A DNA stretch of 64,000 nucleotides. Origin: Candidatus Poriferisodalis sp. (GTDB taxonomy: Bacteria > Actinomycetota > Acidimicrobiia > Acidimicrobiales > Poriferisodalaceae). Below are positions 16,217 to 64,000 of this stretch, piece by piece. The notes below the pieces were generated by a model. That model was not told where the DNA came from, ran no database searches, and was given only the letters and a program-made list of their open reading frames with translations. The first letter of the stretch is position 1. Every line of letters begins with the position of its first letter. The stretch is from positions 1,048,840 through 1,112,839 of the forward strand of contig NZ_OZ241968.1 in assembly GCF_965204125.1 (NCBI RefSeq). The letters are read 5' to 3'. A program made the position numbers and the translations under genes.

Positions 16217-16335
16217 TATATTGTGTTTTAAGAGCTTTAAAACAAATATTTTGATGATACGGCGGAAACTCCTGCCGATGCGTCGGGCGGCGCGTCATCG
16301 GACGAGGACAGCGACTCGCCGGCTCCAGCAGACGC

Positions 16336-16369
16336 GAGGAGCCCCGGGGCCGAAACCCCGGGGCTCCTC
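16336..16369 (-). terminator. Conserved GC-rich hairpin terminator (copy T1) downstream of S1
   Basis: gaggagccccgggg-ccgaaa-ccccggggctcctc, a perfect 14-bp stem. It is preceded by a ~70-nt conserved 3' UTR (16370-16439) shared with the S3, S2 and right-edge copies. Confidence 0.8.
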
Positions 16370-16439
16370 TCAGTTTTGCTGTACCGATCAGGCGGGCAAG
16401 CCGCCCGAGCGGTTTAGGTCAACTGTGCAGCTGACTCCT

Positions 16440-19394
16440 TTAGGGAGTCGGGCTGCTGCCGCTGATACGGGTCTTCCCGCCGTAGTTGAAGTCGTTCTCA
16501 CCAGCGGCCGTGTCGCCGTAGCCATTGGCCACCGAGTCGGTGTCGGTGGTGTCCTGCCGGTCGACAACGGTGGTGGTGGTGTCACTGTCGATCGCTTTGC
16601 CGTTGGCGTCCTTGTCGAAGCCGTCGGGAATGTCGACGATGTCACGCAGCTTCGGCAGCGCGAGCGCAGCCGTGTTGTCCGTCACAACCGTTGCGATGTT
16701 GAACGACCTAGTCCTCTTCGGACCAACGGTTGTCCCCGTCATGGCGAGACCGGTGCCGTCAGTGATGCCGAGGGCTGTCAGCGTGGTCGCCAGCACCGGC
16801 GACTCAACGCCTGGCTGGTGACGACCCATGGCGCCAGCCAGCACATGCGTCATCAGTCGGGTCGACTGATCATCGCTGATGTCCTCGACCCAGCCGTTGA
16901 ACGTGATCGTGACGGTCGCCGTGGTCTGACCACCGGTCAGCGTCGTGATGTCGTCACCGTCGTCACCTGACTCAGGTGTGGTAGTGCCCGACACCGGGAG
17001 GTCCATGTGACGCAGCTCCAGGTTGGCCGACTTGCAGGTGTCAACCGGTGTGCCGCCCGGATCGCTGTAGGCGTTGTCAACGAGGACGTTGAACAGACTG
17101 CTCACCGTCGCGTTGCCCTCCAGCGCTGCCTTCAGGTCAGCGAACTTCGGCTTGCCGTTGACGATCCGCACCACGATCCGGCGGTCCTTGGTGCTGACGA
17201 AGACGTCGATATCAGCGTCCTTGTCACCGTCCCAAGTACTCGCCCGGTCGGCCCGGATGGTCCAGCCGTTGCCGACCGTTCCGGCCGCCTTGCCGTCCGC
17301 CTTGGCCTGCAGCCACACGCCCGGATTGGTGGGCGTGTTGCGGGCAGTCGGAGCGGTGCCTGTCTGATTGGCCGCCGGGATGGCTGCTATGGCCTGGGCC
17401 GGGTGCTTCACGCTGCCGATCGACACGTTGGTCACCTGAAGCTTCTGCACCGGGCTGACCGGCACGCCAGTAGTGACCTGGCTCTCGTTGCCAGCCGTGT
17501 CCTCAATCGCACCACGGTTGGCCCGGAAGCGGTCGTTGGCGTCGATGACATCGGACTCAGTGGCATCGGTGCCGGTGACGTCGCCGAGGGCGAATGTCAG
17601 CAGCGCACTCTTGCGGTCTGAACCAGCCGTGTCGAAGTCGATCTGACTCGCGGTCACGCCCGTGATGCCGACATCGCCGGCAGTCACCTGGAACAGCTTT
17701 GCCAGTTCAGCGCCCGTCGGTGCTGTCTCTGCCAACAGTCCTGTCCGGGCCAGTGCCGTGTTGTCCGACACCAAGCCGTAGAGCGCCGTGTGGCCCCGGA
17801 TGGCGACGATCCGAATCGACGGACGCTGCCTGTCAGGGGTCGGCGCGGGCACGGTGGCCGATGCGGGCTGCACGGTCCGGCGGTCGTCACCGGCGCCCAC
17901 CAGCACAGTGCCAGCCACGATCGAGACCTTGTCGCCGGCCTCCAGGCCGCCTACACGCTCGATAGTCACGGTCACCGAATCCGGGTCGCAAACGGCCGCT
18001 GTGGAAGCGTCCGTCGCGATGTCCACGGGTACACCGTTGACCTGGAGGATGTCCTCCAGCCGGTTCCGCAGGTCAACCGCGGTGGACGGCGCAACATCAT
18101 CGCTGAAGTACAGCGTCACCCGATTGTCGCCCGGAACCAAGATCGGCGTCTTGCCATCCGCCGCAAAGCGGTTCTCGTTGGTTGTGGCGTCGCTGTCGTC
18201 GGCTGCTGCAGTACCGATCGTGACGGTCAGTGCGTCGGCCGAGGCAGCAGCGTCCTTCGCCGCTGACATGACTGCGTCGCTCACCGCGGCGGTGCCGCCG
18301 ATGGCCAGGATCCGCAGGTGCAGCTTGTTGCCGCCGACCTCTTCAGGCGTGCCAGCCAGGTAGTCGCGCACCGAAGCAGGCAGGGTGTCGCCGACCGCGA
18401 GGATCGGGATCAGACCGCTGCCGAGCTGGTCGGTGTCGTCAGCGAGCACCGGAGCGGCCGGAATGCCGTCGATCACGCTGTCGCTGTTGATCAGCGCCAC
18501 GGTGTTGGTGGACACCGGCGACAGGTCATCAGCGCACGCGTCGCCCATCACTTTGGCGATGTTCACCGACACCTCACCGGCAGAATCGCCGCCGATGCGC
18601 TCGACCGTGTCGACGCCAGCGTTCTCCAGTGCGGTCATGACGTCGGCAGACACGCTGCCCTCGCCGCCGACCACTACTGCATGCTCCACGTTCTCGGTTT
18701 CGATATAGCTCACGACCGCGTCGACGAGATCGTCGCCGGCAGTCAGCAGCACCGGCAGCTCGAGCCGGTTCGCCACCGGGCCGATCGCCACAGCGTTGAA
18801 CAGCGAGTCATCAGAACCGTTCACCACGATCGCGGAGTTCTCATTGGTGCCGCACCACGACTCACCCGACAGGTTCGACGCAATCGCAGCCGAAGTGTCA
18901 TAACGGGTGTCGCCCGAGATACGGGTCACCTTCGGGCTGTTGGCCAGCCCCTTGAGGGCATCTTCCACGGCACTGCTGACGGCTGCCTCGCCGCCGAGCA
19001 CGTACAGATTGCCGATGCCGTAGTCCTCGATGTAGTCGGCCACTGCACCATGCAGGGCGCCCGACTGCGTCAACAGAACTGGGGCGTCCATGAAGCCCGC
19101 CAGACCGGACACAGAAACAGCGTCGACCAACGACTCGCCCGATGCGACGAACGCATTCGAGACCGAGCCGATGCCGCCGCGGTCATTCGCGAAGCGGGTG
19201 GCGAGCTTCAGCGCCGTCTGGTAGCGGTCGCTACCGGCGAACTCGCGTGCGCCTGCGGCGGTGAGGTACTCACCAGATGTGTTTGCGGCTTGGGCTGGGT
19301 TTCCCGCTACGACTGCCAGCACCGATGCCATCAGCATCGCCGCCAGGATCGCAGCGAGGGAACGCCTGCCTCGCCGCTTCGAGTAGGTAGTCAA
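16440..19394 (-). CDS. Large CWB2-anchored surface protein, putative S-layer-type paralog S1 (984 aa)
   Basis: TTG start. N-terminus MTTYSKRRGRRSLAAILAAMLMASVLAVVAGNPAQAANT. Three CWB2 units (GSDRYQTALKLATRF, SGDTRYDTSAAIASNL, GGDSAGEVSVNIAKVM). About 90% identical to S3 over the first ~400 aa by eye. C-terminal tail NDFNYGGKTRISGSSPTP. Confidence 0.85.
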   Translation of the reverse strand: MTTYSKRRGRRSLAAILAAMLMASVLAVVAGNPAQAANTSGEYLTAAGAREFAGSDRYQTALKLATRFANDRGGIGSVSNAFVASGESLVDAVSVSGLAGFMDAPVLLTQSGALHGAVADYIEDYGIGNLYVLGGEAAVSSAVEDALKGLANSPKVTRISGDTRYDTSAAIASNLSGESWCGTNENSAIVVNGSDDSLFNAVAIGPVANRLELPVLLTAGDDLVDAVVSYIETENVEHAVVVGGEGSVSADVMTALENAGVDTVERIGGDSAGEVSVNIAKVMGDACADDLSPVSTNTVALINSDSVIDGIPAAPVLADDTDQLGSGLIPILAVGDTLPASVRDYLAGTPEEVGGNKLHLRILAIGGTAAVSDAVMSAAKDAAASADALTVTIGTAAADDSDATTNENRFAADGKTPILVPGDNRVTLYFSDDVAPSTAVDLRNRLEDILQVNGVPVDIATDASTAAVCDPDSVTVTIERVGGLEAGDKVSIVAGTVLVGAGDDRRTVQPASATVPAPTPDRQRPSIRIVAIRGHTALYGLVSDNTALARTGLLAETAPTGAELAKLFQVTAGDVGITGVTASQIDFDTAGSDRKSALLTFALGDVTGTDATESDVIDANDRFRANRGAIEDTAGNESQVTTGVPVSPVQKLQVTNVSIGSVKHPAQAIAAIPAANQTGTAPTARNTPTNPGVWLQAKADGKAAGTVGNGWTIRADRASTWDGDKDADIDVFVSTKDRRIVVRIVNGKPKFADLKAALEGNATVSSLFNVLVDNAYSDPGGTPVDTCKSANLELRHMDLPVSGTTTPESGDDGDDITTLTGGQTTATVTITFNGWVEDISDDQSTRLMTHVLAGAMGRHQPGVESPVLATTLTALGITDGTGLAMTGTTVGPKRTRSFNIATVVTDNTAALALPKLRDIVDIPDGFDKDANGKAIDSDTTTTVVDRQDTTDTDSVANGYGDTAAGENDFNYGGKTRISGSSPTP

Positions 19395-19447
19395 GGTTAT
19401 GTTTCTCCTTGTTCGGCTCCTTTCCGTGTGATTTCGAGCGCTGATAA
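19395..19447 (-). promoter_or_regulatory. Full surface-gene 5' leader (copy A) with two SD-like purine tracts
   Basis: Minus strand reads ttatcagcgctcgaaatcacacGGAAAGGAGccgaacAAGGAGAaacataacc followed by TTG. Nearly identical to the leader at 56362..56418. Confidence 0.7.
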
Positions 19448-19596
19448 CTCACTCGGCGGCGGCCCGTGAAGCACCCCGGCTGCACCGGTCAGCGCATCGG
19501 CGCCGGTCATGACTGGTCGGGCGACACTTCTGCCTGAACGATGCCGCAGTACTGAATGGAGCCCCGCGGCGCCCTCAAAGGAGAAGTCATATAGAT

Positions 19597-22938: not shown

Positions 22939-22961
22939 GTGTGTCTCACGCCATTCCTACA

Positions 22962-25744: not shown

Positions 25745-25935
25745 CGGTGCGCGGAACTGCCTGCCCCGCAGCTCCGCCCAGACAGACACGATCCTGTTTC
25801 TCCTTGTTCGGCTCCTTTCCGTGCGATCTCGAGCCCCGACAGTCCCCAGATGGGTCCGTATGTGCGGTGCCTGGGCCGCCGCAGTCGGCCTCGGCCGCAG
25901 CGTTGCTCGACGGGGCTGACCGTTACGATTCGGTC
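25745..25935 (-). repeat. Orphan surface-gene leader copy B: ~95-nt upstream extension, leader and decayed 5' coding remnant
   Basis: Minus strand reads atcgtaacggtcagccccgtcgagcaacgctgcggccgaggccgac...ctgtcggggctcgagatcgcacggaaaggagccgaacaaggagaaacaggatcGTGtctgtctgggcggagctgcggggcaggcagttccgcgca. Near-identical to the inverted copy at 51637..51825. Confidence 0.85.
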
Positions 25936-26883: not shown

Positions 26884-27070
26884 CGCACAGACGCGAGGAG
26901 CCCCAGGGGCGGGACCCCTGCGACTGCAGATGCACCGCCGTGCCCAGCCTTGGCGGCCACAGTGTCGACCGCCTGCCCGCCGCTCCGCCCAGACAGCCAA
27001 GGTCCTGTTTCTCCTTGTTCGGCTCCTTTCCGTGCGATCTCGGGCCCTGACAGTCTCAAGACGGCCGTTC
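26884..27070 (-). repeat. Orphan copy C: leader, ~65-nt 5' coding remnant and terminator-like hairpin (a collapsed surface-gene cassette)
   Basis: Minus strand reads gaacggccgtcttgagactgtcagggcccgagatcgcacggaaaggagccgaacaaggagaaacaggaccTTGgctgtctgggcggagcggcgggcaggcggtcgac...cagggg-tcccg-cccctg-gggctcctcgcgtctgtgc. The last part matches the conserved terminator module gacgcgaggagcccc. Confidence 0.75.
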
Positions 27071-40700: not shown

Positions 40701-40720
40701 GGTTATGTTTCTCCTTGTTC
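40701..40720 (-). promoter_or_regulatory. Truncated leader of S2 (only the gaacaaggagaaacataacc part is shared with full leaders)
   Basis: Minus strand reads ccgttgcaca|gaacaaggagaaacataacc|TTG. Homology to the full leader begins exactly at gaacaaggag. Confidence 0.7.
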
Positions 40721-41088
40721 TGTGCAACGGGAGATGCTCCCGCTCTGCATTGTCAAACCCCGCGTCGTCGCGGTTTGTGACAGCGCCGACCGGTTGAAGG
40801 GCTCACCTCGGCACATTCGCACCCGGTGAGCCCCACCTGGTGTCCCGCCTACGCGAGGTACACGGAACAGGTCCAGTGTAACGACCTTCGCTGCCGCGTC
40901 ATAGGGGAAATTTCGGCCGATTTTCGAGCCGCCGCGACCGGTGCTTCCAGCGGTGTCGACCGGGCGCTCGGCGGCGAAGATCGCGAATGCTGTGGACCCT
41001 GCGGAGCGCTCAGCCGATCACGCCGAGGGCGTCGAGCGTCGATGGGCCGTGTGGCTGCGCGCTGGAGTCGGGGCTGTGCCGACGAGCG

Positions 41089-41379
41089 CTACGAGAAAAT
41101 GCCGAGCCCTACCACGACGCCGAGGATCGACACGCCGATTCCGGCCAGCCAGCGGAACTGGTGCCGCGCTTCCTTGCGGTCGGCCTCGCGGGCATCGACG
41201 AGCCGCTCGAACTTGGTATCGAGACGCTCGAACGCGGTATCGAGACGCGCGATGTCGCTCTTGGTGGCGAGATCGGGCAGCGGCACAGGGCTCAGACAGG
41301 ACATGACGTATTCGGCGAGCGACTCGTCGGCCTGCTCGCACCACCAAGCGTAGAGGCGGGAACGATCTTGTTCAGACAC
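41089..41379 (-). CDS. Small coiled-coil, C-terminally membrane-anchored protein (96 aa)
   Basis: GTG 41379 preceded by gaaaggaatccgct (SD). Sequence VSEQDRSRLYAWWCEQADESLAEYVMSCLSPVPLPDLATKSDIARLDTAFERLDTKFERLVDAREADRKEARHQFRWLAGIGVSILGVVVGLGIFS. Homologous relics lie at 63475-63890 and 61745-61840. Confidence 0.6.
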   Translation of the reverse strand: MSEQDRSRLYAWWCEQADESLAEYVMSCLSPVPLPDLATKSDIARLDTAFERLDTKFERLVDAREADRKEARHQFRWLAGIGVSILGVVVGLGIFS

Positions 41380-41513
41380 AGCGGATTCCTTTCTGCAGCG
41401 ATCCGCTGTGGACAGTAGGGAGCCTCTCTCAATTCGAAAAATGAATTTCATGTTGTTTTGTTGATTGCTGCAATTGGCGTCGGCTTGGCTGGCCGGCGTC
41501 GCCGTTGGCAGTC

Positions 41514-42713: not shown

Positions 42714-42839
42714 TGTGCCCCTCGAATATGGGGAACAAGACGCCGTCTAGGGAACGAATCGGTTTTGGGCAATCGGTTAGGTGATTTGTTGACCTGCGAC
42801 ATTCGAAGTTCCTCATATCGACGGGCGCAGCGATGCGAG

Positions 42840-42859
42840 GAACAAGGAGAAAAGGAACC
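42840..42859 (+). promoter_or_regulatory. Truncated leader of S3 (gaacaaggagaaaaggaacc)
   Basis: Reads gcgatgcgag|gaacaaggagaaaaggaacc|TTG. Homology to the full leader starts at the same gaacaaggag as in S2. A candidate -35/-10 pair is TTGACC 42789-42794 and TCATAT 42813-42818 (weak). Confidence 0.6.
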
Positions 42860-45748
42860 TTGACTATCCGAACGAAGCGGCGGGGCAGGCGTTCCCTCGC
42901 AGCGATCCTGGCGGCGATGCTCATGGCGTCGGTGCTAGCGGTCGTAGCGGGATCCCCAGCCCAGGCCGCAAACACATCTGGCGAGTATCTCGTCGAAGGC
43001 GAGCGTGAGTTCGCCGGTAGCGACCGCTACCAGACGGCGCTGAAGCTCGCCACCCGCTTCGCGGACGACCGCGGCGGCATCGGCTCGGTCTCAGCTGCGT
43101 TCATCGCATCGGGCGAGTCGCTGGTAGACGCCGTGTCGGTCTCCGGTCTTGCGGGCTTCATGGACGCCCCAGTCCTGTTGACGCAGTCGGGCAGCCTGCA
43201 TGGCGGCGTTGCCGACTACCTCGAGGACTACGGCATCGGCAACCTCTACGTGCTCGGCGGCGAGGCAGCCGTCAGCGGCGCAGTGGAAGATGCCCTGAAG
43301 GGTCTGGCCCACAGCCCGACGGTGACCCGCATCTCGGGCGACACCCGTTATGACACTTCGGCTGCTATTGCGTCGAACCTGTCGGGTGAGTCGTGGTGCG
43401 GCACCAACGAGAACTCCGCGATCATCGTGAACGGCTCCGATGAGGATCTGTTCAACGCTGTGGCGATCGGCCCGGTGGCCAACCGGCTCGAGCTTCCGGT
43501 GCTGCTGACTGCTGGCGACTCTCTCGTCGACGCAGTGGTCAGCTACATCGAGTCCGAAGATGTCGAGCATGCAGTTGTGGTCGGTGGCGAAGACAGCGTG
43601 TCTGCTGACGTCATGACCGCGCTGGGCAACGCCGGTGTGGACACGGTCGAGCGGATCGGTGGCGACTCTGCCGCTGCAGTCTCGGTCGCGATCGCTGGCG
43701 TGATCGGCGGCGACTGCGCCGACGACCTGTCGCCGGTGTCGGGCAACACGGTGGCGCTGATCAACAGCGACAGCGTGATCGACGGCATCCCGGCCGCTCC
43801 GGTGCTCGCTGACGACGGCGACCAGCTTGGCGGCGGTCTGATCCCGATCCTTGCGGTCGGCGACAGCCTGCCTGCTTCGGTGCGTGACTACCTGGCGGCG
43901 ACGCCTGAGGAAGACGGCGCTGGCAACAAGGTCCACCTGCGGGTGCTGGCCGTCGGCGGAACCGCTGCGGTAAGCGACGCGGTCATGTCAGCAGCGGTCG
44001 ACGCTGCTGCCTCGGCTGACGCGCTGACCGTCACGATCAGCGGTGCGGCCGACAAGGCCGACGCAGGTCTGGCAGCGTCCCGCGGTGGCACCATGATCCA
44101 CCTGCACTTCAGCGACGACATCTCGCGTGCTACGGATGCGAACCTTCGCAACAAGCTCGAGGATGTGCTGCAGATCAACGGCGTGCCTGCTGACGTGGCA
44201 GCCGATGCCCCCGGCACCGCTGCGCCGTGCGATCCCGACACCGTGACGGTGACGCTGGAGCGCACGCTGAAGGCTGGCGACGTGGTCTCCATCGTGGAGG
44301 GCGCGGTACTGGTGGGCGCCGACGGCGACCGCCGGCCCGTGCAGCCCACGTCGGCCACGGTGCCTGCGGCTGCGGTCGACAACCAGCGTCCGACGATCCG
44401 GATCGTGGCCATCATCGGCCACACCGAGCTGTACGGCCTGGTGTCCGACGATACGGCGCTGGCCGAGACAGCAATGTTGTCTTCAACAGCACTGACCGGT
44501 ACTGCTCTGTCGGACCTCTTCGAGGTGACCGCTGGCGATGTCGGCATCGTGAGCTATACCTCGAGTGCGACGTTCCCGACGGACGGAACTGCGGCTCCGA
44601 AGACTTCGCTGCTGACGTTCACCCTCGGCGACGACCCGAACAGGGACGGCACCCAGGTCGGCACGATCGACTCCAGCGATCGCTTCCGGGCCAACCGTGG
44701 AGCTATCGAGGACGCCTCCGAGAACGAGAGCCAGGTCACCACGGGCGTGCCCGTGTCGCCTGTCAGCCAGCTGCGAGTGAGCAGCGTGCAGATGAGCAAC
44801 CTGAAGCACAACGCTCAGGCCATCGCACCGATCCCGTCGGCGCATCAGGGCGCTACCGCTCCCGATCAGGCGACGGGGCGCAGTGTTACGCAGGCGCAGG
44901 GCAATGAGGCTGTGTGGCTGCAGGCCAAGGAGGACGGCGCCGCGGCTGGTGCGTTCGGCAACGGCTGGACCATCCGTGCAGACAGGGCGAGCACTTGGGA
45001 CATGAAGAAGGACGCCGACATCGACGTCTTCATCAGCACCAAGGACCGTCGGATCGTGGTGCGGATCGTCAACGGCGAGCCGACGTTCTCTGACCTGAAG
45101 GCTGCCCTGGAGGGCAACGCGACGGTTAACAGCCTGTTCAACGTCCTCGTGGACAACTCGTACCTCGACGACAACACGGACACCTGCAAGGCTGCGAACC
45201 ACAAGCTGATGCATGCGCTGCTGCCAGTGTCGACTGCAGAAGACGCAGGCGACGGTGACGACATCGCCACTCTTGACGGTGGCAACACCCAGGCGAACAT
45301 CAGGGTGACCTTCAACGGCTACGTCGAAGACATCACCGCTGCTCAGTCCACCCAGCTGATGACGCACGTGCTGGCCGACGCACTGAAGCGTGCGACGGCC
45401 GCTGGTGTCGCTGACCAGGCGGCCCTGCTGACGGCGCTCACTGCAACGACTGATGACTTCGTGAAGGCTGCTTCAGCCGGACCGACGCGGACTGGCATGT
45501 TCGACATCAGCACCGGCAACGCTGCGGCTCTGCCGAAGGCGCGGGACATCGTCGAGATTCCCGACGGCTTCGCCAAGAACGCCGACGGCACGCCGACTGA
45601 CAGTGACACCAGCACCACTGCCATTGACCGGACGGACTCCAACTCGGTGGCCAACGGCTACGGCGACACTGCCGCTGGCGATAACGACTGGAACTACGGT
45701 TCGAAGATCCGCATCGTCACCAGCAGCGCCGTTCCTGCACCCGAGTAG
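42860..45748 (+). CDS. Large CWB2-anchored surface protein, putative S-layer-type paralog S3
   Basis: TTG 42860 (LTIRTKRRGRRSLAAILAAMLMASVLAVVAGSPAQAANT); the ORF is open from 42833. CWB2 motifs as in S1. Shared internal blocks RFRANRGAIED..ESQVTTGVPVSPV and WLQAKEDGAAAGAFGNGWTIRADRASTWD. Tail NDWNYGSKIRIVTSSAVPAPE. Confidence 0.85.
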   Translation: MTIRTKRRGRRSLAAILAAMLMASVLAVVAGSPAQAANTSGEYLVEGEREFAGSDRYQTALKLATRFADDRGGIGSVSAAFIASGESLVDAVSVSGLAGFMDAPVLLTQSGSLHGGVADYLEDYGIGNLYVLGGEAAVSGAVEDALKGLAHSPTVTRISGDTRYDTSAAIASNLSGESWCGTNENSAIIVNGSDEDLFNAVAIGPVANRLELPVLLTAGDSLVDAVVSYIESEDVEHAVVVGGEDSVSADVMTALGNAGVDTVERIGGDSAAAVSVAIAGVIGGDCADDLSPVSGNTVALINSDSVIDGIPAAPVLADDGDQLGGGLIPILAVGDSLPASVRDYLAATPEEDGAGNKVHLRVLAVGGTAAVSDAVMSAAVDAAASADALTVTISGAADKADAGLAASRGGTMIHLHFSDDISRATDANLRNKLEDVLQINGVPADVAADAPGTAAPCDPDTVTVTLERTLKAGDVVSIVEGAVLVGADGDRRPVQPTSATVPAAAVDNQRPTIRIVAIIGHTELYGLVSDDTALAETAMLSSTALTGTALSDLFEVTAGDVGIVSYTSSATFPTDGTAAPKTSLLTFTLGDDPNRDGTQVGTIDSSDRFRANRGAIEDASENESQVTTGVPVSPVSQLRVSSVQMSNLKHNAQAIAPIPSAHQGATAPDQATGRSVTQAQGNEAVWLQAKEDGAAAGAFGNGWTIRADRASTWDMKKDADIDVFISTKDRRIVVRIVNGEPTFSDLKAALEGNATVNSLFNVLVDNSYLDDNTDTCKAANHKLMHALLPVSTAEDAGDGDDIATLDGGNTQANIRVTFNGYVEDITAAQSTQLMTHVLADALKRATAAGVADQAALLTALTATTDDFVKAASAGPTRTGMFDISTGNAAALPKARDIVEIPDGFAKNADGTPTDSDTSTTAIDRTDSNSVANGYGDTAAGDNDWNYGSKIRIVTSSAVPAPE

Positions 45749-45917: not shown

Positions 45918-48900
45918 GTGCCGCATCACGGCGGCCCCAACCCATTGACGTCAGGCAGAGAACTCAGAACTGTGACCACGCGACCCCGTCCACGTGGCCG
46001 GCGCTCGCTTGCCGTGGCCCTTGCGACAATGCTCGTCGCGTCGGTGCTGGCGGTGACAGCGGGTACCCCAGCCCACGCCGCGAATACCGCTGGCGAGTAC
46101 CTCACCGCCGATGGCGAGCGTGAGTTCGCCGGCAGCGACCGCTACCAGACGGCGCTGAGGCTCGCAGAGCGCTTCGCCGATGACCGCGGCGGCATCGGCT
46201 CGGTGTCGAATGCGTTCATCGCATCGGGCGAAACGCTGGTGGATGCTGTGTCGGCAGCCGGCCTCGCCGGCTTCATGGACGCGCCGGTGCTGTTGACTCG
46301 CTCGGACCGCCTGCACAGCGCAGTGGCCGACTTCCTCGACGACTACGGCATCGGCACCATTCACGTGCTCGGCGGAACCGCTGCCGTCAGCGACGGCGTG
46401 ATCGACGAGCTCAAGGGGCTGGCCGGCGTCGGCTCAGTGGAGCGCATCGCCGGCGACACCCGCTACGACACGTCGGCGGCCATTGCGTCGCACCTGTCGG
46501 GCGAGTCGTGGTGCGGCACCAATGAGAACTCGGCGATCTTGGCGAACGGCGCCGATGAGCGGCTGTTCGATGCTGTGGCGATCGGCCCGGTGGCGAACCG
46601 GCTCGAGCTGCCGGTGCTGCTGACGGCCGGCGACGAGCTGGCGGACGCAGTGCTCGCCTACATCGAGTCGGACGACATCGAGCATGTGGTGATGGTGGGT
46701 GGCGAGGCCAGCGTGTCGGCTGCCGTCGAGCAGGCGCTGCGCGATGCCGGCGTGGACACGGTGGAGCGCATCGGCGGCGACTCTGCGGCCGCGACCTCGG
46801 TTGCGATTGCCGAGACCATCGGCGGCGACTGTGCCGACGACCTGTCGCCGGTCTCGGTGGACACGGTGGCATTGGTGAACCAGGACAGCCTGGCCGACGG
46901 CATCTCGGCCGTTCCGGTGCTGGCCGACGACACCGACCAGCTCGGCGGCGGCCTCGTGCCGATGCTCGCCGTGGGCGGCACGCTGCCCGCTTCGGTGCGC
47001 GACTACCTGGCTGCGACCCCTGAGGAGGACTCGGCCGGCAACAAGGTGCACCTGCGGGTGCTGGCTGTGGGCGGCACTGCGGCGGTGAGCGACTCGGTGA
47101 TGGCTGCTGCTGTTGCCGCGGCCGGCGCCGCCGACGCGCTCACGGTCACCATCAGCGCTTCGGCCGACAAGGCAGATGCCGGCCTGGGCGACGCCAGGGG
47201 TCAGAACACGGTGCACCTGCACTTCAGCGACGACATCTCCCGGGCCGACAACGCCAATCTGCGCAACAAGCTCGAGGACATCCTGCAGATCAACGGCGTG
47301 CCGGCCGACATCGCAAGCGATGCCCCCGGGATCGAGGCACCGTGCGATCCCGACACGGTCACCGTGACGCTGGAGCGCAATCTGAAGGCAGGCGACACCG
47401 TGTCGATCGTGTCCGGGGCAGTGCTGGTGGGCGCCGACGGCGACCGCCGCACGGTGCAGCCCGTCTCGGCCACCGTGCCCGCAGCGCCGGTCGACCGGCA
47501 GCGCCCGTCGCTTCGCATCATCGCCATCGTCGGCGACAACATTGTGTGGGGCCTGATCTCCGATGACACGGCCTTGAGCGAAGCGGGGCTGCTCGCTGAG
47601 AACCTGACCAATGCCGACGGCAAGCCGCTGTTCGAGCAGACATCGTCTTCGGGCACGGCAGGACTCTTCGAGTTGCACGCCGAAGGCATCGCCTTCGACA
47701 CCCCTGGCGCGCAGCGCACGACCGCCCGATTCCGCTATTTCCTCCAGGACGACCCCGCTACGCCGGACGTCAACGAGGGCATCGTGAGCGCCAACGACCG
47801 CTTCCGGGCGAATCGCGGCGCCATCGTGGACGCTGCGGGCAACGAGAGCCAGGTCACCACTGGGGTGCCGGTGCAGCCGGTCAGCAAGCTGCGGGTGAGC
47901 AGCGTGCTGATGAGCGAACTGAGCCACACGGCCCAGGCACGGGCACTCGTGCCCTCGGCGCACAGGTTCGAGACGCCGCCCGAGCTGCGCTTCGTGGACC
48001 CGAACATTCCGTCGCCGAGCGCGTCGGACAACCCGTCGAACCCGGCGGTGTGGCTGCAGGCCAAGGCCGACGGGGCTGCTGCTGGCGCCTACGGCAACCT
48101 GTGGACCGTTCGGGCCGACCGGTCGAGCTCGTGGGACGGCAGCAAGGATCCCGAGGTGGAGGTGCTGGCCAGCGTCTCGGCACGGCAGGTGTTCGTGCGC
48201 GTCGTCAACGGCGAGCCGAGATTCTCCGACGTGAGCGCCGCTCTGGAGGCGCACCCGGTGGTCAGCAGCCTGTTCAACGTGATCGTCGACAACCTGTACG
48301 TCAACAACACCGACACCTGCGAGCTGGCGAACCCGAAGATCCAGCACCAGCTGCTGCCCGCCACCGGCGACGAGGCGGGCGCCGACGGCGACGACGTCCA
48401 GGCGCTCGTGGGGGGTGTCACCAAGGCCGGTTTCCGTGTGAACTTCAACGGCTGGATCGAGAGCATGAACGCCGACCAAGCCGCTCGGCTGCTGGCGGCC
48501 CTGCTCGATGACACGCTGGCGCGGTACAAGGCCGCGGTACCGGTGCAGGGCGACAACAGCGAGACCGATCTCGACGACCTGCGTGCGATTCTCGGCGAGT
48601 TCGACCCCGACGGCGTCACGCAGGGCACGCCGCTGGCGCTGTTCGTGAAGGTGACCGGGGACGGTCCGCGGACTGTCGTGGAGTTCAAGGTGGAGACGAA
48701 CCACGCTGTGGCGCTGCCGCAGCCGCGTGACATCGTGGACATTGCTGACGGCTTCGACACCGACGCCGACGGCGACCCGGTGGACGGCGACGACCAGACC
48801 GACGGGGTGCAGCGCACTGACACCGGCGGGCGGTCGGTGGTGGACGGCTACGGCGACAACCACTCCGACGGCACCACCGACAACGACTTCAACTACGGCT

Positions 48901-48947
48901 CACGGGTGCGGATAGCCCGCAGCAGCAGCGTCACCCCGCCCGACTAG
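45918..48947 (+). CDS. Large CWB2-anchored surface protein, putative S-layer-type paralog S4 (different upstream region)
   Basis: Signal peptide RGRRSLAVALATMLVASVLAVTAGTPAHAANT. By homology the start could be GTG 45972 (VTTRPRPRGRRS). GTG 45918 has an AAGG 11 nt upstream. CWB2 motifs GSDRYQTALRLAERF, AGDTRYDTSAAIASHL and GGDSAAATSVAIAETI. Tail NDFNYGSRVRIARSSSVTPPD. Confidence 0.85.
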   Translation: MPHHGGPNPLTSGRELRTVTTRPRPRGRRSLAVALATMLVASVLAVTAGTPAHAANTAGEYLTADGEREFAGSDRYQTALRLAERFADDRGGIGSVSNAFIASGETLVDAVSAAGLAGFMDAPVLLTRSDRLHSAVADFLDDYGIGTIHVLGGTAAVSDGVIDELKGLAGVGSVERIAGDTRYDTSAAIASHLSGESWCGTNENSAILANGADERLFDAVAIGPVANRLELPVLLTAGDELADAVLAYIESDDIEHVVMVGGEASVSAAVEQALRDAGVDTVERIGGDSAAATSVAIAETIGGDCADDLSPVSVDTVALVNQDSLADGISAVPVLADDTDQLGGGLVPMLAVGGTLPASVRDYLAATPEEDSAGNKVHLRVLAVGGTAAVSDSVMAAAVAAAGAADALTVTISASADKADAGLGDARGQNTVHLHFSDDISRADNANLRNKLEDILQINGVPADIASDAPGIEAPCDPDTVTVTLERNLKAGDTVSIVSGAVLVGADGDRRTVQPVSATVPAAPVDRQRPSLRIIAIVGDNIVWGLISDDTALSEAGLLAENLTNADGKPLFEQTSSSGTAGLFELHAEGIAFDTPGAQRTTARFRYFLQDDPATPDVNEGIVSANDRFRANRGAIVDAAGNESQVTTGVPVQPVSKLRVSSVLMSELSHTAQARALVPSAHRFETPPELRFVDPNIPSPSASDNPSNPAVWLQAKADGAAAGAYGNLWTVRADRSSSWDGSKDPEVEVLASVSARQVFVRVVNGEPRFSDVSAALEAHPVVSSLFNVIVDNLYVNNTDTCELANPKIQHQLLPATGDEAGADGDDVQALVGGVTKAGFRVNFNGWIESMNADQAARLLAALLDDTLARYKAAVPVQGDNSETDLDDLRAILGEFDPDGVTQGTPLALFVKVTGDGPRTVVEFKVETNHAVALPQPRDIVDIADGFDTDADGDPVDGDDQTDGVQRTDTGGRSVVDGYGDNHSDGTTDNDFNYGSRVRIARSSSVTPPD

Positions 48948-50574: not shown

Positions 50575-50629
50575 TGAACGGCCGCTGAGAAGGCTGTCAG
50601 GGCTCGGAATCTCACGGCAAGGAGCCGAT
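50575..50629 (+). repeat. Degenerate, truncated surface-gene leader copy E'
   Basis: gtgaacggccgctgagaaggctgtcagggctcggaatctcacggcaaggagccga aligns with gaacggccgtctagcgagctgtcagggctcgagatcgcacggaaaggagccga of copy G, then diverges. Confidence 0.65.
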
Positions 50630-51636: not shown

Positions 51637-51825
51637 GACGATCGTAACGGTCAGCCCCGTCGAGCAACGCTGCGGCCGAGGCCGACCGCGGCGGCCCAGG
51701 CACCGCACATACAGACCCATCTGGGGACTGTCAGCACCCGAGATCGCACGGAAAGGAGCCGAGCAAGGAGAGAAGGAACCGTGGCTGCTCGGGCGAAGCG
51801 GCGGCGCGAGCCTTGTGCGTGAGCT
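51637..51825 (+). repeat. Orphan leader copy F (long form with ~95-nt upstream extension; inverted twin of copy B)
   Basis: gacgatcgtaacggtcagccccgtcgagcaacgctgcggccgaggccgaccgcggcggcccaggcaccgcacatacagacccatctggggactgtcagcacccgagatcgcacggaaaggagccgagcaaggagagaaggaaccGTGgctgctcgggcgaagcggcggcgcgag. Confidence 0.85.
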
Positions 51826-52675: not shown

Positions 52676-52815
52676 GAACGGCCGTCTAGCGAGCTGTCAG
52701 GGCTCGAGATCGCACGGAAAGGAGCCGAACAAGGAGAAACAGGATCGTGTCTGTTCGTTCGAACCCACGAGGCGGGTGGTTCTTCGCGCCCGCTTCGATC
52801 GTTGGGTTGTATCTG
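52676..52815 (+). repeat. Orphan leader copy G with a decayed 5' coding remnant
   Basis: gaacggccgtctagcgagctgtcagggctcgagatcgcacggaaaggagccgaacaaggagaaacaggatcGTGtctgttcgttcgaacccacgaggcgggtggttcttcgcg. The remnant aligns with ttgactacctactcgaagcggcgaggcaggcgttccctcgc. Confidence 0.85.
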
Positions 52816-54858: not shown

Positions 54859-54973
54859 GCTCAGCCGCAACCGACCGGTCGAGCGGCGTTTGTCGTCGCG
54901 ATTCCGGTCTCGCGTAGACGAATCCTGAGGTTCGCACAGCAACGCCGCACTGGGCCGTATCCGGGCGGCACGT

Positions 54974-55095
54974 GAACGGCTGTCAGGGCTCGAGTTCGCA
55001 CGGAAAGGAGCCGAACAAGGAGAAACAGGATCGTGTCTGTTCGTTCGAACCAGACGGGGTGGGCGGTTCGTCGAGCCGCCGCGGGCTCTCGGTTT
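54974..55095 (+). repeat. Orphan leader copy H with a decayed 5' coding remnant
   Basis: gaacggctgtcagggctcgagttcgcacggaaaggagccgaacaaggagaaacaggatcGTGtctgttcgttcgaaccagacggggtgggcggttcgtcgag. Almost identical to copy G through gttcgaacc. Confidence 0.85.
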
Positions 55096-55101
55096 TGGGT
55101 T

Positions 55102-56270: not shown

Positions 56271-56361
56271 GACCGCAGCCTACGCCGCGGCCCGTCAACC
56301 CGTCAACCCGTCAACCAACCGTCTCGGGCTGCTCAGCCGGCCGCTGACAAGCGCCCCTCTT

Positions 56362-56418
56362 GGGGCTGTCAAGACCCGAAATCACACGGAAAGGAGCCGA
56401 ACAAGGAGAAACATAACC
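56362..56418 (+). promoter_or_regulatory. Full surface-gene 5' leader (copy I) attached to S5
   Basis: ggggctgtcaagacccgaaatcacacGGAAAGGAGccgaacAAGGAGAaacataacc followed by TTG. Identical to copy A from cgaaatcacacgg onward. Confidence 0.7.
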
Positions 56419-59226
56419 TTGACTACCTACTCGAAGCGGCGAGGCAGGCGTTCCCTCGCTGCGATCCTGGCGGCGATGCTCATTGCATCGGTGCTCGCCG
56501 TGGTCGCCGGCTCACCGGCGCACGCGGCCAACACGGCCGGCGAAGTACTCGTCGACCATGACAACGACGCGAAGACTCCGAAGGTGCGCCAGTTCGCCGG
56601 CGACACCCGCTATGAGACTGCTCTGGCACTCGCGAAGGACTTTGCTGAGAACAACGGCAGCATCGGCGGAGTTCCCGTCGCTTTCGTCGCGTCGGGTGAG
56701 TCGCTGGTCGACGCCGTGACTGTCTCAGCTCTTGCAGGCGACCTGAACGCACCGGTGCTGCTCACCCCTGGCGGGGAACTGCACCGAGGCGTCGGCACAT
56801 TCCTCGAGGACTACGGCATTGGAACGATCCATGTGCTCGGCGGCACCGCCGCTGTCTCCGATGCGGTTGTCACCGCCATCGAGGGCCTGGTCCACGAGCC
56901 GACCGTGACGCGCATCGCTGGCGACGACCGGTATGCGACTGCTGCTGCGATCGCTTCGGCTCTGAATGGTTCTCGGTCGTGGTGCGATTCCGACAATGAG
57001 GCTGCGGTGCTGGTCAATGGTGGCAGCACGTCGCTGGCCGGTGCGACAGTCATCGGGCCGGTTGCGAACCGTCTCGCGGTGCCAGTGTTGCTTACCGCCG
57101 CTGACGAACTGCCTGACGCGACCCGCGACTGGATCGACGAGAACAGCATCGAGCATGTTGTGATTGTCGGCTCGACCGCCGACGTGTCCGCGGGCATCGA
57201 GAAGATGCTGGCGGCTGACGGTGTCGATGTCGTTGAGCGCATCGCTGGCGACAACGCCGGTGAGTTGTCGGTGAACGTCGCCAAGACCGTCACTGGCGAT
57301 TGCGCTGACGATCTGGCGCCGGTTGCGTTTGATCGGGCTGCGTTGGTGAACGGCTGGGGACGCGATGTCGCCCCTGACGCCATCACCGCTGCGCCGGTTC
57401 TGTCGGACGGCAATCTCGTGCCGATCCTGCTGGTCGGTGACACGCTGCCCGCATCGGTGCGTGATTACCTCGCCGCGACGCCGTCGCTGCGTAATGGCAA
57501 CAAGGTGCATTATCAGCTGCTCGCTATCGGCGGCACCGCTGCGGTGTCGGAGGCTGTGATGGCAGCGGCGATTGATGCTGCTGCTTCGGCTGATGCGCTC
57601 ACTGTGTCGATTACCAACAACGTTGATATGCCGACGCATGATGACTTCGGAAAGCCGCCCGTTGTCGATGCGACAAGCTTCACGCTGCGGTTCAACGACC
57701 GTGTCAACAGCACCGGCCTGCAAGCCAAGCTCAGTGACATTGTCGAGATCAACGGCGCTCCAGCTGTCTTCACCGTTGCTGACGCCGATACTGACGGCAC
57801 TGTGGAAGCCACAGAGTCGAGTTATCGCTGCGATTCCGCGATCGTGCGCATCACCGGTGTGCCGGCTCTCAAAGCTGGCGATGTCATCTCGGTCGCCGGT
57901 TCGACGCTGACGGTTGGTGCTGGCGATGACCAGCGCAATGTCGTGTCGACTTCGGTGACGGTGCCCGCGAACCCAGTCGACAAGATTGGCCCGAAGATCA
58001 CCATCGTCGGTGTTGAGGACCAGAACAGCGGCGACGTTGGCACCGTCTGGGTCACGGTTGCTTCCGACGATCTCGGCACGGGCACCGACACAGGGTTGAC
58101 GATCGACAACGCCGCGACCACCAATATCGCCAACGATGGTGAAGTGCGTGCAACCCGTGGCGGCAAGTCGCTCGTGCTCGCAGCCATCACTGATGTGTCG
58201 TTGGCAGCAGACGGCACGGCACGCTTCGAGTTGACGCTCGGCACTCAGACTGACACCACCCTCGTCGCTGAGTGGAAGGCCGGGGACCAGATCACGTTCA
58301 TGAGAGGCGCGCTTGTCGACGCTGAAGGCAACGACAGCCCACGTGCACATGGCAGGGTTGCCGCAGCCAAAGTTTCCCCGAAGCCGACAGCGATCCGCGT
58401 TAGCGACGAGAACCACACCAACCAAGCAACTGCAACGGTTCCGGTCGCTATCGCAGGAACAGGCGGAGTGGCGGACATCACGCTGACCGCTAAGAAGGAC
58501 GGCGCAGCGGCAGGTGTGCGCGGCAACGGCTGGACATTCCGGCTGCGCAACGCCAGCACCGTGCCCGCTGGTGACGCCGACATCGCTGTGTCAGTCGATA
58601 CCAAGGGCCGACGTGTAGTCGCGACAGTCCGTCGTGGCGCACCGACCTACGGGGATCTCAAAACGGCGCTCGACGGTCACAGGGCATTCGCAGCGCTGTT
58701 CGACGTTGCTATCGCCAAGACGGCCGACAATGCGGCAGCCGGCACCTGCGGGGCTCCCAAGAGCACCACGAAGCTCACTCTCACGGGAGACTCGCCACCG
58801 GCTGGTCTGGACACTCCCGTTGCCTTCGCTGAGGGCCGTACCACTATGGCTGTGGAAGTCATCTTCAACGGCTACCTCCAGACGGTGACCGACAACGCGC
58901 TGCGTGACGACGTGTTCGCGGACGCTGTCGCAGAGCGCGGCGTCGATCTGGCCAACCTGGCGACCGATAGCAGTGTGACACAGGTGTTCGTGGCACCATC
59001 TGACAGGGTCCGTTACAACATCGTCGCCACTGCGGGCGATGCCGGTCTGCTGTTGCAGCCCGGGCCCGGCAAGGACCGTGTGGTTGTCGCTGCTGGAGAT
59101 GTCGCCACCGGCTACGCCGACGACGGTCTCACCGGCACCGACGACACCGATGGTGACGAGACCACCAACGCCAAGAACGATGGTCTGTGGATGCACCGCA
59201 GCAGCTCTGTCAAGGCTCCCGCCTAG
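56419..59226 (+). CDS. Large CWB2-anchored surface protein, putative S-layer-type paralog S5 (subfamily with S2)
   Basis: TTG 56419 (LTTYSKRRGRRSLAAILAAMLIASVLAVVAGSPAHAANT). CWB2 motifs GDTRYETALALAKDF, AGDDRYATAAAIASAL and AGDNAGELSVNVAKTV. The first ~75 nt are identical to S1. The track ORF start at 56056 overlaps the antitoxin gene and is rejected. Confidence 0.85.
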   Translation: MTTYSKRRGRRSLAAILAAMLIASVLAVVAGSPAHAANTAGEVLVDHDNDAKTPKVRQFAGDTRYETALALAKDFAENNGSIGGVPVAFVASGESLVDAVTVSALAGDLNAPVLLTPGGELHRGVGTFLEDYGIGTIHVLGGTAAVSDAVVTAIEGLVHEPTVTRIAGDDRYATAAAIASALNGSRSWCDSDNEAAVLVNGGSTSLAGATVIGPVANRLAVPVLLTAADELPDATRDWIDENSIEHVVIVGSTADVSAGIEKMLAADGVDVVERIAGDNAGELSVNVAKTVTGDCADDLAPVAFDRAALVNGWGRDVAPDAITAAPVLSDGNLVPILLVGDTLPASVRDYLAATPSLRNGNKVHYQLLAIGGTAAVSEAVMAAAIDAAASADALTVSITNNVDMPTHDDFGKPPVVDATSFTLRFNDRVNSTGLQAKLSDIVEINGAPAVFTVADADTDGTVEATESSYRCDSAIVRITGVPALKAGDVISVAGSTLTVGAGDDQRNVVSTSVTVPANPVDKIGPKITIVGVEDQNSGDVGTVWVTVASDDLGTGTDTGLTIDNAATTNIANDGEVRATRGGKSLVLAAITDVSLAADGTARFELTLGTQTDTTLVAEWKAGDQITFMRGALVDAEGNDSPRAHGRVAAAKVSPKPTAIRVSDENHTNQATATVPVAIAGTGGVADITLTAKKDGAAAGVRGNGWTFRLRNASTVPAGDADIAVSVDTKGRRVVATVRRGAPTYGDLKTALDGHRAFAALFDVAIAKTADNAAAGTCGAPKSTTKLTLTGDSPPAGLDTPVAFAEGRTTMAVEVIFNGYLQTVTDNALRDDVFADAVAERGVDLANLATDSSVTQVFVAPSDRVRYNIVATAGDAGLLLQPGPGKDRVVVAAGDVATGYADDGLTGTDDTDGDETTNAKNDGLWMHRSSSVKAPA

Positions 59227-63349: not shown

Positions 63350-63474
63350 CTCCTAGCAAGCAGAAAATAGTCTGTGCAACTACCAAAAGCCGGACGCGAA
63401 GAGCCCCGGGGTTTCGGCCCGTGGTCGCCCGCTTTCGGTCCCCGGTGTTGGCTAGTGCGGCGTCTCTGCGCTGG

Positions 63475-63890
63475 TCAGCCGCGCAGCCACTCGGTGATGG
63501 CAACGACTGCCGCAAGGGCACAGAGCATCTCGATCGGCACCCAGAACGCCAGCCGGCTGATCTGCTTGCTGAGGGAGGCAATGTCCTCGCGGCGTTCCTT
63601 GCGGTCGGCCTCGCATTGGGCGGCGTGTGCTCGGCGGTCGGCCTCGCATTGGGCGGCGTGTGCTCGGCGGTCGGCCTCGCATTGGGCGGCCAGTTCTTGG
63701 AGGTCGGCCTGGCGCTGGTTGGACATCATGAGCGAGAACTTCGAGAACTCTGCTGACAGGTGCCCTTGGCGACCAGGTCCGACAGCGGTGCCGGAGCGAG
63801 GCACGACATCACGAACTCCGCTGTCTGTTCGTCGGTCTGCTCACGCAGCAGATTGTAGAAGTTGGTGCGTTGCTGTTCCGGAGTCCCGGA
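63475..63890 (-). pseudogene. Frameshifted, start-less homolog of the small coiled-coil tail-anchored protein at 41089..41379
   Basis: Track ORF 63475..63804 contains GHLSAEFSKFSLMM...CEADRKERREDIASLSKQISRLAFWVPIEMLCALAAVVAITEWL. Bases 63805-63880 in another frame read PEQQRTNFYNLLREQTDEQTAEFVMSCLAPAPLSDLVAKG, which aligns with SEQDRSRLYAWWCEQADESLAEYVMSCLSPVPLPDLATKS. The frames differ by one missing C in aagggc(c)acctg. Confidence 0.6.
63601..63690 (-). repeat. Perfect 33-bp tandem repeat, about 2.7 copies (gcggtcggcctcgcattgggcggcgtgtgctcg)
   Basis: Units at 63601-63633 and 63634-63666, with a partial unit at 63667-63690. It encodes AAQCEADRRAH repeats. Confidence 0.9.
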
Positions 63891-63910
63891 AGTTGACGAC
63901 CGCAGACGCG

Positions 63911-63942
63911 AAGAGCCCCGGGGCCGAAACCCCGGGGCTCCT
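63911..63942 (-). terminator. Conserved hairpin terminator (copy T6) with 3' UTR of a further surface-gene paralog lying beyond the right edge
   Basis: aagagccccgggg-ccgaaa-ccccggggctcctt followed (63943-64000) by cgttgttggtctttgccgatcaggcgggcaatcccccgatcagttcaggtcaactgt. This matches the S2 3' UTR at 37733-37800. Confidence 0.7.
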
Positions 63943-64000
63943 TCGTTGTTGGTCTTTGCCGATCAGGCGGGCAATCCCCCGATCAGTTCAGGTCAACTGT

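Follow-up and report, generated by a model that had tools for sequence, protein, structure and literature searches.

The 64,000-nucleotide (nt) stretch of Candidatus Poriferisodalis sp., an uncultured actinobacterium (Acidimicrobiia) that lives as a sponge symbiont, analysed here (contig NZ_OZ241968.1, ~68% G+C), called the window below and used for all positions, carries a family of large genes for CWB2 surface proteins. We call them S genes; five are complete (S1 to S5) and the window also holds the end of a sixth. They have a modular anatomy, they are mosaics within the window, their parts are re-assorted between genomes, and exchange with its junction inside a short core in front of the start codon has been reciprocal and recurrent. 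We propose that this is a surface-variation locus in which recombinase-mediated inversion of a module is combined with homologous recombination, a proposal to which we give about the same weight as to its denial. The mosaic pattern is the product of recombination; that the system is a programmed one is a proposal.

The window was compared with 32 loci from species-representative genomes, all of them from Poriferisodalis or Acidimicrobiia and labelled L001, L002, and so on. All comparisons between genomes concern lineages that are ~72-95% identical. Clusters with several S copies, often in both orientations, were present in every related genome examined. A database search with S1 returned 661 homologues. 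The best came from metagenome-assembled genomes (MAGs) of Candidatus Poriferisodalis and other Acidimicrobiia, under the annotation 'cell wall-binding repeat-containing proteins'. The named ones among the 661 were all Poriferisodalis/Acidimicrobiia MAG proteins, and many contigs had several. The viral contigs searched gave no relatives, and our literature search found no paper mentioning Poriferisodalis and none joining Acidimicrobiia, sponge, and S-layer (surface layer).

The S genes and their flanking elements

The S1-S5 open reading frames (ORFs) lie where the initial annotation had placed them. The sixth copy is also where it was announced, at the window end, as a 3' untranslated region (UTR) that runs off the sequence on the minus strand. 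The coding sequences (with lengths in amino acids, aa) and the shared 3' UTRs are:

16440..19394, minus strand: S1 coding sequence, 984 aa, with signal peptide, CWB2 triad, beta-rich ectodomain, and conserved C-terminal tail
16328..16439, minus strand: S1 3' UTR, with the box GCACAGTTGACC, hairpin 1, a linker, and the 13-bp GC hairpin 2 at 16339-16366
37803..40700, minus strand: S2 coding sequence, 965 aa
37692..37802, minus strand: S2 3' UTR, with hairpin 2 at 37703-37730
42860..45748, plus strand: S3 coding sequence, 962 aa
45749..45860, plus strand: S3 3' UTR, with hairpin 2 at 45820-45847
45972..48947 (alternative start 45918), plus strand: S4 coding sequence, with its own leader and without the shared 3' UTR
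56419..59226, plus strand: S5 coding sequence, 935 aa, with a different terminator downstream
63902..64000, minus strand: sixth S gene, 3' UTR only, with hairpin 2 at 63913-63940 and the body outside the window

An S gene is laid out as an upstream type, the core, a TTG start, a signal peptide, the CWB2 triad, a variable ectodomain of ~580 aa, a tail, and the 3' UTR. In S1 to S5 the sole Pfam family is CW_binding_2 (PF04122; E 1e-24 to 1e-36). The three CWB2 units proposed earlier are supported, with two to three Pfam stretches per protein and an S1 model that folds as a triad. This AlphaFold2 model, built from 103 family members, has a predicted local distance difference test (pLDDT) score of 86.4. 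In a Foldseek search its residues ~40-400 superpose on the CWB2 triads of Clostridioides difficile SLP_H (the high-molecular-weight subunit of SlpA), Cwp6, and Cwp8; the matches to 7acy_B, 7acz_D, and 5j72_A have E ~1e-18 to 1e-19 and a target template-modelling score of 0.43-0.73 (0.63-0.73 for the triad on these three proteins). A profile search of the PDB matched the same three proteins, in the CWB2 part only. The remaining ~580 aa of the S1 model form beta-rich domains for which the fold search gave only weak Ig-like matches. The NCBIfam S-layer_Clost (SlpA) model scored 71.1 bits against a cut-off of 650, with the match confined to the CWB2 part. A putative Sec-type signal peptide, KRRGRRSLAAILAAMLMASVLAVVAGSPAQA / ANT (the slash marking the predicted cleavage point), is shared by S1 to S5. 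The sequences and the model thus characterise the S proteins as probable Sec-secreted, wall-anchored, multi-domain envelope proteins. Anchoring to the wall through the CWB2 triad is putative, and for an S-layer role this predicted triad is the only pointer.

Within the family, S1, S3, and S4 form a group with 62-75% aa identity, as the initial annotation had suggested. Its second subfamily is not supported, since S2 and S5, at 47% aa identity, are no closer to each other than either is to S1/S3/S4 (41-46%). A gene of the S4 type, with ~77% nt identity, is present in L004. The C-terminal tail is mostly present as described, though its N(F/W)NYGS portion is missing from S5. Islands of identity do occur inside the S proteins; they are invariant across the 103-member alignment and reflect structural constraint.

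The shared 3' UTR, ~100 nt long with its hairpin, follows S1, S2, S3, and the sixth copy; the earlier claim fails for S4 and S5. The stop codon of S4 is in overlap with a PIN gene that runs convergently, another terminator follows S5, and neither gene has related sequence downstream. The hairpin GAGCCCCGGGG-N6-CCCCGGGGCTC occurs exactly four times in the window (at 16339, 37703, 45820, and 63913) where none is expected. Aligning 34 distinct 3' UTRs revealed a conserved single-stranded box GCACAGTTGACCTGAACC, a first hairpin of 6 bp with compensatory changes from C:G to U:A, a linker of two types, and the GC hairpin, which has 13 bp, an almost invariant sequence, and no U tail. All four combinations of linker and loop type are found among the four copies of the window. 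An Rfam scan of the window returned no families and left the S 3' UTR unmatched.

On the 5' side, the S genes are preceded by a 13-nt leader core, GAACAAGGAGAAA, which occurs eight times in the window against 0.01 expected. It carries the Shine-Dalgarno sequence and lies 20 nt 5' of the TTG start. The shared leader described earlier stands for S1, S2, S3, and S5, and is missing from S4. On its upstream side the core adjoins one of three sequences that are unrelated to one another and kept from genome to genome: Type A (...CTGTCAGG.CCGAAATCACACGGAAAGGAGCC), found before S1, S5, and all the solo leaders described below; Type B (...GGGGTTTGACAATGCAGAGCGGGAGCATCTCCCG), before S2; and Type C (...TTGACCTGCG...TTCCTCATATCGACGGG), before S3. 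The leaders of these genes are:

19395..19470, minus strand: Type A leader of S1, with core at 19402-19414, Shine-Dalgarno sequence, and TTG start
40701..40800, minus strand: Type B leader of S2, with core at 40708-40720
42765..42859, plus strand: Type C leader of S3, with core at 42840-42852, divergent from the integrase start
56354..56418, plus strand: Type A leader of S5, with core at 56399-56411

The 75 nt of Type B upstream sequence are ~96-100% identical in other genomes, where ~3 of the 75 positions differ between genomes whose integrase genes are 82-89% identical in nt. Type A copies share GAACGGCCG, a spacer of 8-10 nt, and CTGTCAGG, ~20-45 nt upstream of a 29-nt leader sequence (examples at 52682-52712 and 54968-54998 on the plus strand and 27035-27064 on the minus strand). 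This arrangement fits the pattern GAAC-N16-GTC, which we take to recall promoters of extracytoplasmic-function (ECF) sigma factors. A candidate conserved stem in the Type A 5' UTR was rejected on direct reading, the pairing not being kept in S5 or L002. Each complete S gene has its own upstream region (A, B, C, or that of S4), a Shine-Dalgarno sequence, and a start codon, so none looks like a silent cassette.

The core precedes and the hairpin follows S genes even in species whose S proteins are only ~40% identical, which marks both as functional elements. Since the flanks are kept genus-wide, their conservation does not support recent exchange or conversion. The initial annotation did not mention this genus-wide conservation, the three upstream types, or the recombinase module described below.

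Mosaicism, re-assortment, and exchange at the core

The resemblance of S1 and S3 in inverse orientation, noted earlier, is borne out: they form an inverted repeat, 23.7 kb apart, with 88% identity over 929 nt; between the two 3' UTRs the identity is 93% over 108 nt. The informative sites of S1, S3, and S4 are unevenly spread (a chi-square of 134.6, where permutations averaged 42 and peaked at 78; p = 2e-4), as S3 groups with S4 at alignment positions 1200-1650 and with S1 in the flanks. From -44 to +62 S1 is S5-like at 26 of 27 informative sites, and 104 nt, covering the leader and the first 60 nt of the coding sequence, are identical in both genes, in contrast to bodies that are ~55% identical. 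From +76 on it is S3-like, at 113 sites against 9 for S5. S1 is thus a sharp recombinant, S5-type and then S3-type, with its junction at ~+65. Relative to their closest orthologues, S1 and S3 also have private patches of ~100 nt each. The shifts of signal among S1/S3/S4, the S5-to-S3 junction in S1, and the uncoupling of leader from body described next together amount to mosaicism beyond shared ancestry, as had been proposed for the family.

Across genomes, Types A, B, and C combine freely with different N-termini and bodies. The S3 body has Type C in the window and Type B in L003 (86% nt identity), and the S1 body has Type A in the window and L002, and Type C in L001. One orthologous gene has Type C with the integrase in L003 and Type A in L002; in this pair the homology stops exactly at the edge of the core and the first 140 nt are identical. 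Correlating distance matrices across 39 genes gave r = 0.69-0.79 among upstream windows, r = 0.51-0.87 among body windows, and r = 0.05-0.24 between upstream and body, linkage being lost between the core and ~+125.

L001, a short-read metagenome scaffold with an S gene 86% identical to S1, carries in colinear order the 5' end of S2 with its Type B leader, the integrase, a Type C leader, an S1-type body, and the genes found downstream of S1 (the HNH protein, the 6507-9233 gene, and the 940-3687 gene), the latter reversed relative to the window. On the integrase side colinearity spans window positions 40666-42840. This is the order expected from inverting ~19.4-42.8 kb of the window via the inverted 5' regions of S1 and S3. 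Upstream and in the first 100 nt of its coding sequence, the L001 gene is of the S3 type (4 vs 85 informative sites); it is mixed up to ~+900 and of the S1 type from ~+1000 (30 vs 1 and 31 vs 3 per 100-nt bin), placing a crossover at ~+950. L003 (NZ_OZ242342.1) is a complete genome with a closed long-read chromosome, and supports re-assortment independently of L001.

As an observation on assemblies, public metagenome contigs stop exactly in the leader and signal-peptide region of S genes (both ends of L009 and L010 and the starts of L084, L085, and L001), so the locus is systematically fragmented in MAGs. Repeats explain contig breaks at leaders, and structural heterogeneity would give the same breaks.

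Between the divergent S2 and S3 lies a module with a recombinase gene, flanked by inverted arms made of the core and 5' coding sequence (40585-40729 and 42831-42975) that are 84% identical:

40721..42839: recombinase module between S2 and S3
41514..42713, minus strand: tyrosine recombinase, 399 aa, with Arm-DNA-bind_3, Phage_int_M, and Phage_integrase domains
41089..41300, minus strand: small coiled-coil protein with a C-terminal membrane helix, 3' of the integrase, start uncertain

The recombinase, an integrase of the P4/CP4 island type with an arm-binding domain, has the catalytic residues R248, K275, H335, R338, H362, and Y372 conserved and is accordingly predicted to be catalytically intact. 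It belongs to a clade of 65-98% identity that stands apart from a large plateau of paralogues at 56-63%. All clade members with readable context, in ~14 loci, lie inside S clusters, usually between two divergent S genes, and start 100-230 nt from an S start. Both sides of the integrase are visible in the window, L001, L003, L007, L010, L080, L086, and L088, and one side or a contig end in L005 (twice), L008, L040, L084, L085, and L089 (L084, L085, L086, and L088 were retrieved with the integrase as query, not with an S protein). A 60% paralogue in the genome of L003 sits in an ordinary defence island with no CWB2 neighbour. The window, L001, L003, L010, L080, L085, and L086 all have Type C at the integrase start and Type B at the integrase end; in the close clade (85-100% integrase identity) this order is invariant wherever a side is readable. 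In L007 and L088 the S-integrase-S layout is divergent as well and the leaders have diverged; L005 has integrase-S units in tandem. The module is 1.6-3 kb long across loci. The small coiled-coil gene has equivalents of 100-133 aa in L084 (1584-1910), L085, and L086 (11335-11637), and the region of a 100-aa ORF in L002 (2724-3026) matches window 41146-41423; the ORF matches no Pfam family and is absent from the L003 module.

Directly after the core, a patch of ~25 nt has two alleles: P1, A(A/C)(A/G)GGAACCTTGACTAT(C/T)CGAACG, which encodes LTIRTK, and P2, ACATAACCTTGACTACC..., which encodes LTTxxK. All seven loci with both sides visible have one P1 and one P2 flank. P1 lies on the C side in four (window, L086, L001, L080) and on the B side in three (L085, L010, L003). 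On a tree of the integrase gene the two states are interspersed, with at least three switches among nine taxa, and the sisters L001 and L010 (bootstrap 0.925) have opposite states. Leader and patch are relinked only if crossing over happens inside the core, over its 13 identical bases, and we take this as the best evidence that the resident recombinase acts there.

The module is the strongest lead to a mechanism. We propose the recombinase as the catalyst of this exchange: it would flip the Type C-integrase-Type B module at the inverted cores, and each flip would swap the S genes behind leader B and leader C. The conserved 5' block (core, signal peptide, and CWB2 region) and the 3' block would serve as recombination substrates between copies in both orientations, such that inversions and gene-conversion tracts would re-assort leaders, anchors, and exposed parts. 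Types A, B, and C may then be promoters of different activity, switching may go on within populations, and the benefit would presumably be variation of the coat against phages or host cells; antigenic or phage-receptor variation, as suggested initially, is a candidate role.

Solo leaders and competing explanations

The leader is not a mark of the six S genes alone: six further copies of it precede only short ORFs. The 29-nt leader is exactly common to S1, S5, and four sites with no S gene behind. These further copies are:

25763..25867, minus strand: solo Type A leader a, with the core and ~15 degenerate S codons, without S body
26887..27064, minus strand: solo Type A leader b, with a degenerate S-type terminator (26887-26927) ~100 nt later
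50575..50628, plus strand: truncated Type A leader c, without the core
51716..51814, plus strand: solo Type A leader d, in which the core is a variant and the patch P1-like
52682..52780, plus strand: solo Type A leader e, a solo copy
54968..55066, plus strand: solo Type A leader f, directed into the RES toxin gene at its 3' end

Solo leaders have 13-15 degenerate S codons and no S body, and most point into the 3' ends of convergent genes (for a 2-oxoglutarate oxygenase, NYN, a 434-aa protein, and the RES toxin). With its degenerate terminator, leader b looks like an internally collapsed (deleted) S gene. Similar stubs in L012 (14346) and L033 (1330) indicate that solo leaders are conserved. 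A sigma-70 promoter scan of the solo-leader array was uninformative.

Several points weigh against a locus that switches by inversion. The best long tract shared by paralogues is the 88% over 929 nt given above, unlike in high-frequency switching systems, and the paralogues are not homogenised at high frequency. Exact-protein look-ups of S1 and S3 found no same-species variants. L001 may be a chimera at a 1-kb repeat. The dyad of the core is only weak (CAAGG and CCTTG, 10 nt apart), and an integrase of the P4/CP4 arm-binding type is more typical of integration than of inversion. The recombinase module shows no sigma-70-type promoter in a scan for one, and with an upstream region and a Shine-Dalgarno sequence before every gene there may be no ON/OFF logic at all. 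The conservation of core and 3' UTR across species is consistent with a purely regulatory role. Finally, L006 and L089 have patch hybrids whose junctions fall within the patch; together with the junctions at ~+65 and ~+950, these are typical of homologous recombination and not of a single site. Homologous recombination clearly contributes as well. A scan of metagenomes for the leader gave 49 stretches, with S genes in six and none close to the window, and thus no within-population evidence; a look-up of P0037 led to another lineage, not to a second genome of the L003 species.

These points feed the strongest of the alternatives, which we nevertheless find unlikely: that all exchange comes from RecA-dependent homologous recombination and from gene conversion between oppositely oriented paralogues, over their conserved 5' and 3' blocks, of the kind known from Campylobacter fetus, whose sap inversion depends on RecA, and that the recombinase is a bystander, the relic integrase of an island. 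It would account for crossovers scattered over the 5' block, at ~+65 and ~+950, for the patch hybrids and the fine-scale patches of S1 and S3 relative to their orthologues, and for the four linker/loop combinations of the 3' UTRs. There are precedents in the inversion between oppositely oriented slp genes of Lactobacillus acidophilus (PMC3666127) and in the recombining sap copies of C. fetus (PMC4943207). What it explains poorly is why a crossover within 13 bases recurred at least three times among nine taxa: with ~1 kb of 80-90% homology adjoining, the core is an unlikely target for RecA. A relic also fits poorly with an integrase clade of 65-98% identity that has an intact active site, is found only in S clusters, and keeps a fixed orientation relative to B and C.

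Somewhat less probable still is an ordinary expanded family of paralogues, each with its own promoter, in which leader and 3' UTR are cis-regulatory and a slow, incidental recombination has no role in variation. The core and 3' UTR kept at ~40% protein identity, the 3' UTR hairpins that covary or are invariant as for a functional RNA, and the separate upstream region of each complete gene would all fit such a family. So would the paralogues' 55-88% identity, with the 104 nt of S1 and S5 as the only long identical tract. Of the many CWB2 proteins in C. difficile, too, most do not form variation systems. Against it, adjacent leader and body are almost wholly uncoupled, exchange at the module recurs and is reciprocal, the locus has kept a dedicated recombinase clade, and divergent S genes surround the module in many genomes.

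A mobile or integron-like platform, on which the integrase would move cassettes at the core and leave solo leaders as attachment-site scars, we regard as very improbable. It draws on the four to five direct Type A copies between 50.6 and 56.4 kb, behind each of which lies a small cassette, either toxin-antitoxin or unknown, and on L003, where a segment X is followed directly by a Type A leader and S gene, while in the window X is followed by stub f, the RES cassette, and the Type A leader of S5. The tandem integrase-S units of L005 and the palindromic element at the end of each S gene would also suit it. However, the same chromosomal neighbours recur in several genomes, the cassette genes oppose the leaders, the integrase is P4-like and not IntI-like, and no relatives turned up on the viral contigs searched. 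We looked for tRNA genes in the window and found none, nor is there a direct-repeat att pair flanking the integrase; an integrative island at a tRNA gene was rejected on the same two grounds. An integron proper was rejected, given the P4/CP4-like integrase, S genes with their own leaders in both orientations, and a 3' element that on direct reading lacks the layout of attC core sites.

The proposal of module inversion plus homologous recombination can be extended to an expression-site carousel, which as a joint claim we consider improbable. In it, a domesticated P4-type integrase could flip a promoter module that faces both ways, at a 13-nt site overlapping the ribosome-binding site, and so trade the coat genes driven by leaders B and C; homologous recombination could bring in new ectodomains from Type A copies, and the leader could be a landing pad for toxin-antitoxin and anti-phage cassettes, leaving solo leaders behind. 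If true, surface variation would be coupled to the acquisition of defence genes in one platform.

Neighbouring genes, known systems, and significance

At least eight other CWB2 proteins, outside the earlier list of S genes, are encoded in the window with other architectures. Some carry the triad at the N-terminus and others at the C-terminus, and the S leader and S 3' UTR are absent from all of them:

11502-14390: fusion of CWB2 and an RCC1 propeller
6507-9233: gene of the CWB2 group, with an RCC1 match only
3819-6491: CWB2 with a periplasmic-binding domain
28764-31028 and 31025-32896: CWB2 with fn3 domains
3-929, 940-3687, and 33230-35200: further CWB2 proteins

In-frame tandem repeats lie inside CWB2 genes at 6249-6426 (9 nt, N-terminal, RTALT-type), 7612-7926 (9/18/27 nt, GTGxT), and 29670-29981 (21/24 nt, a PPPDNN-type linker), and are possible length-variable regions. 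An HNH endonuclease with a long N-terminal region (9490-11349, minus strand) lies between CWB2 genes; in L001 it is likewise kept beside the gene of the S1 type. Toxin-antitoxin and anti-phage genes take up the space from one S gene to the next:

21496-22938: ThsA-like SIR2-STALD protein
22764-23753 and 23750-24493: Shosta-like pair, ShosA and a ComF/PRTase-like (phosphoribosyltransferase) protein
27285-28565: PDC-S01
35602-37299: AlbA_2/HATPase_c_4 protein
14650-15933, 48944-49405, 49776-50336, 50741-51403, and 55102-56270: HipA, two PIN toxins, NYN, and the RES toxin with its upstream partner ORF

AbiE and PIN/PhdYeFM pairs are found at equivalent places in L084, L086, and L089.

The closest anatomy to the S locus is seen in the systems named vpma, vsp, and vsa in Mycoplasma agalactiae, M. 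bovis, and M. pulmonis, with the recombinases Xer1, Mbr, and HvsR. In vpma, the 5' UTRs and signal peptides are conserved, a tyrosine recombinase is encoded next to the genes, and the sites of recombination lie within the 5' UTR (PMC2268961). The S locus likewise has a clustered surface family in both orientations with conserved 5' UTR and signal peptide and variable mature parts, a tyrosine recombinase in the locus, and putative exchange points in the 5' UTR just 5' of the start. It differs in that the mycoplasma systems have one promoter and silent genes, while it has three upstream types and, judging by sequence, no obviously silent copy. Their products are lipoproteins of wall-less bacteria, those of the S locus are CWB2 wall-anchored proteins of ~950-1000 aa. 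Their recombinases are Xer-like, whereas ours is P4/CP4-like with an arm-binding domain. Switching is experimental there and proposed from sequence here.

In C. fetus, sap homologues have a conserved 5' anchor block and a variable remainder and lie in both orientations, and a promoter-bearing segment inverts between opposed copies; there is a single promoter, the inversion is RecA-dependent, and there is no resident recombinase. Several complete, clustered sap homologues recombine into chimeras (PMC4943207). As in sap, the S genes are complete homologues in both orientations with a conserved 5' anchor block, and S crossovers lie inside that block. Sap proteins differ in using type I secretion (sapCDEF) and a lipopolysaccharide anchor, where S proteins carry putative Sec signal peptides and use CWB2 as predicted anchor, with the recombinase located inside the segment; none of the annotated genes of the window is a transporter gene. 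In L. acidophilus, slpA and slpB are interchanged by chromosomal inversion (PMC3666127). There, much as we propose for the S locus, two opposed S-layer genes trade places behind an expression site through inversion of the intervening segment, but that system has two genes, one promoter, no recombinase in the segment, and another anchor, against at least six genes and three leader types in the S locus.

With SlpA and the Cwp proteins of C. difficile the S proteins share the three-repeat CWB2 triad, clustered paralogues, and variable functional domains. Unlike SlpA, they are single uncleaved chains with an N-terminal triad, score 71 vs 650 bits, and come from Actinomycetota. The diversity of S-layer cassettes in C. 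difficile arises by exchange between strains and not from a resident inversion module. Shufflons (Rci), fimS (FimB/FimE), and Hin/Gin use short inverted repeats and a recombinase to choose a surface variant, as we propose for the S locus, and the Hin gene lies inside the invertible segment, as does the recombinase gene in our candidate segment. The S locus is not a shufflon. Shufflons swap the 3' exons of one gene, whereas the S locus exchanges whole genes behind leaders; Hin and Gin are serine recombinases; and fimS has one promoter with ON/OFF states, whereas the S module has two leaders facing outward.

If our proposal is true, we know of no earlier surface-variation locus of the inversion type in Actinomycetota and of none acting on CWB2 proteins, and an integrase of the P4 family would have a domesticated role as an invertase. 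Sponge symbionts live with a host that phagocytoses bacteria and with dense phages, and how they escape recognition is an open question. A genus-wide recombination that re-assorts the exposed parts of the coat would, if true, offer a concrete and testable mechanism for staying unrecognised.

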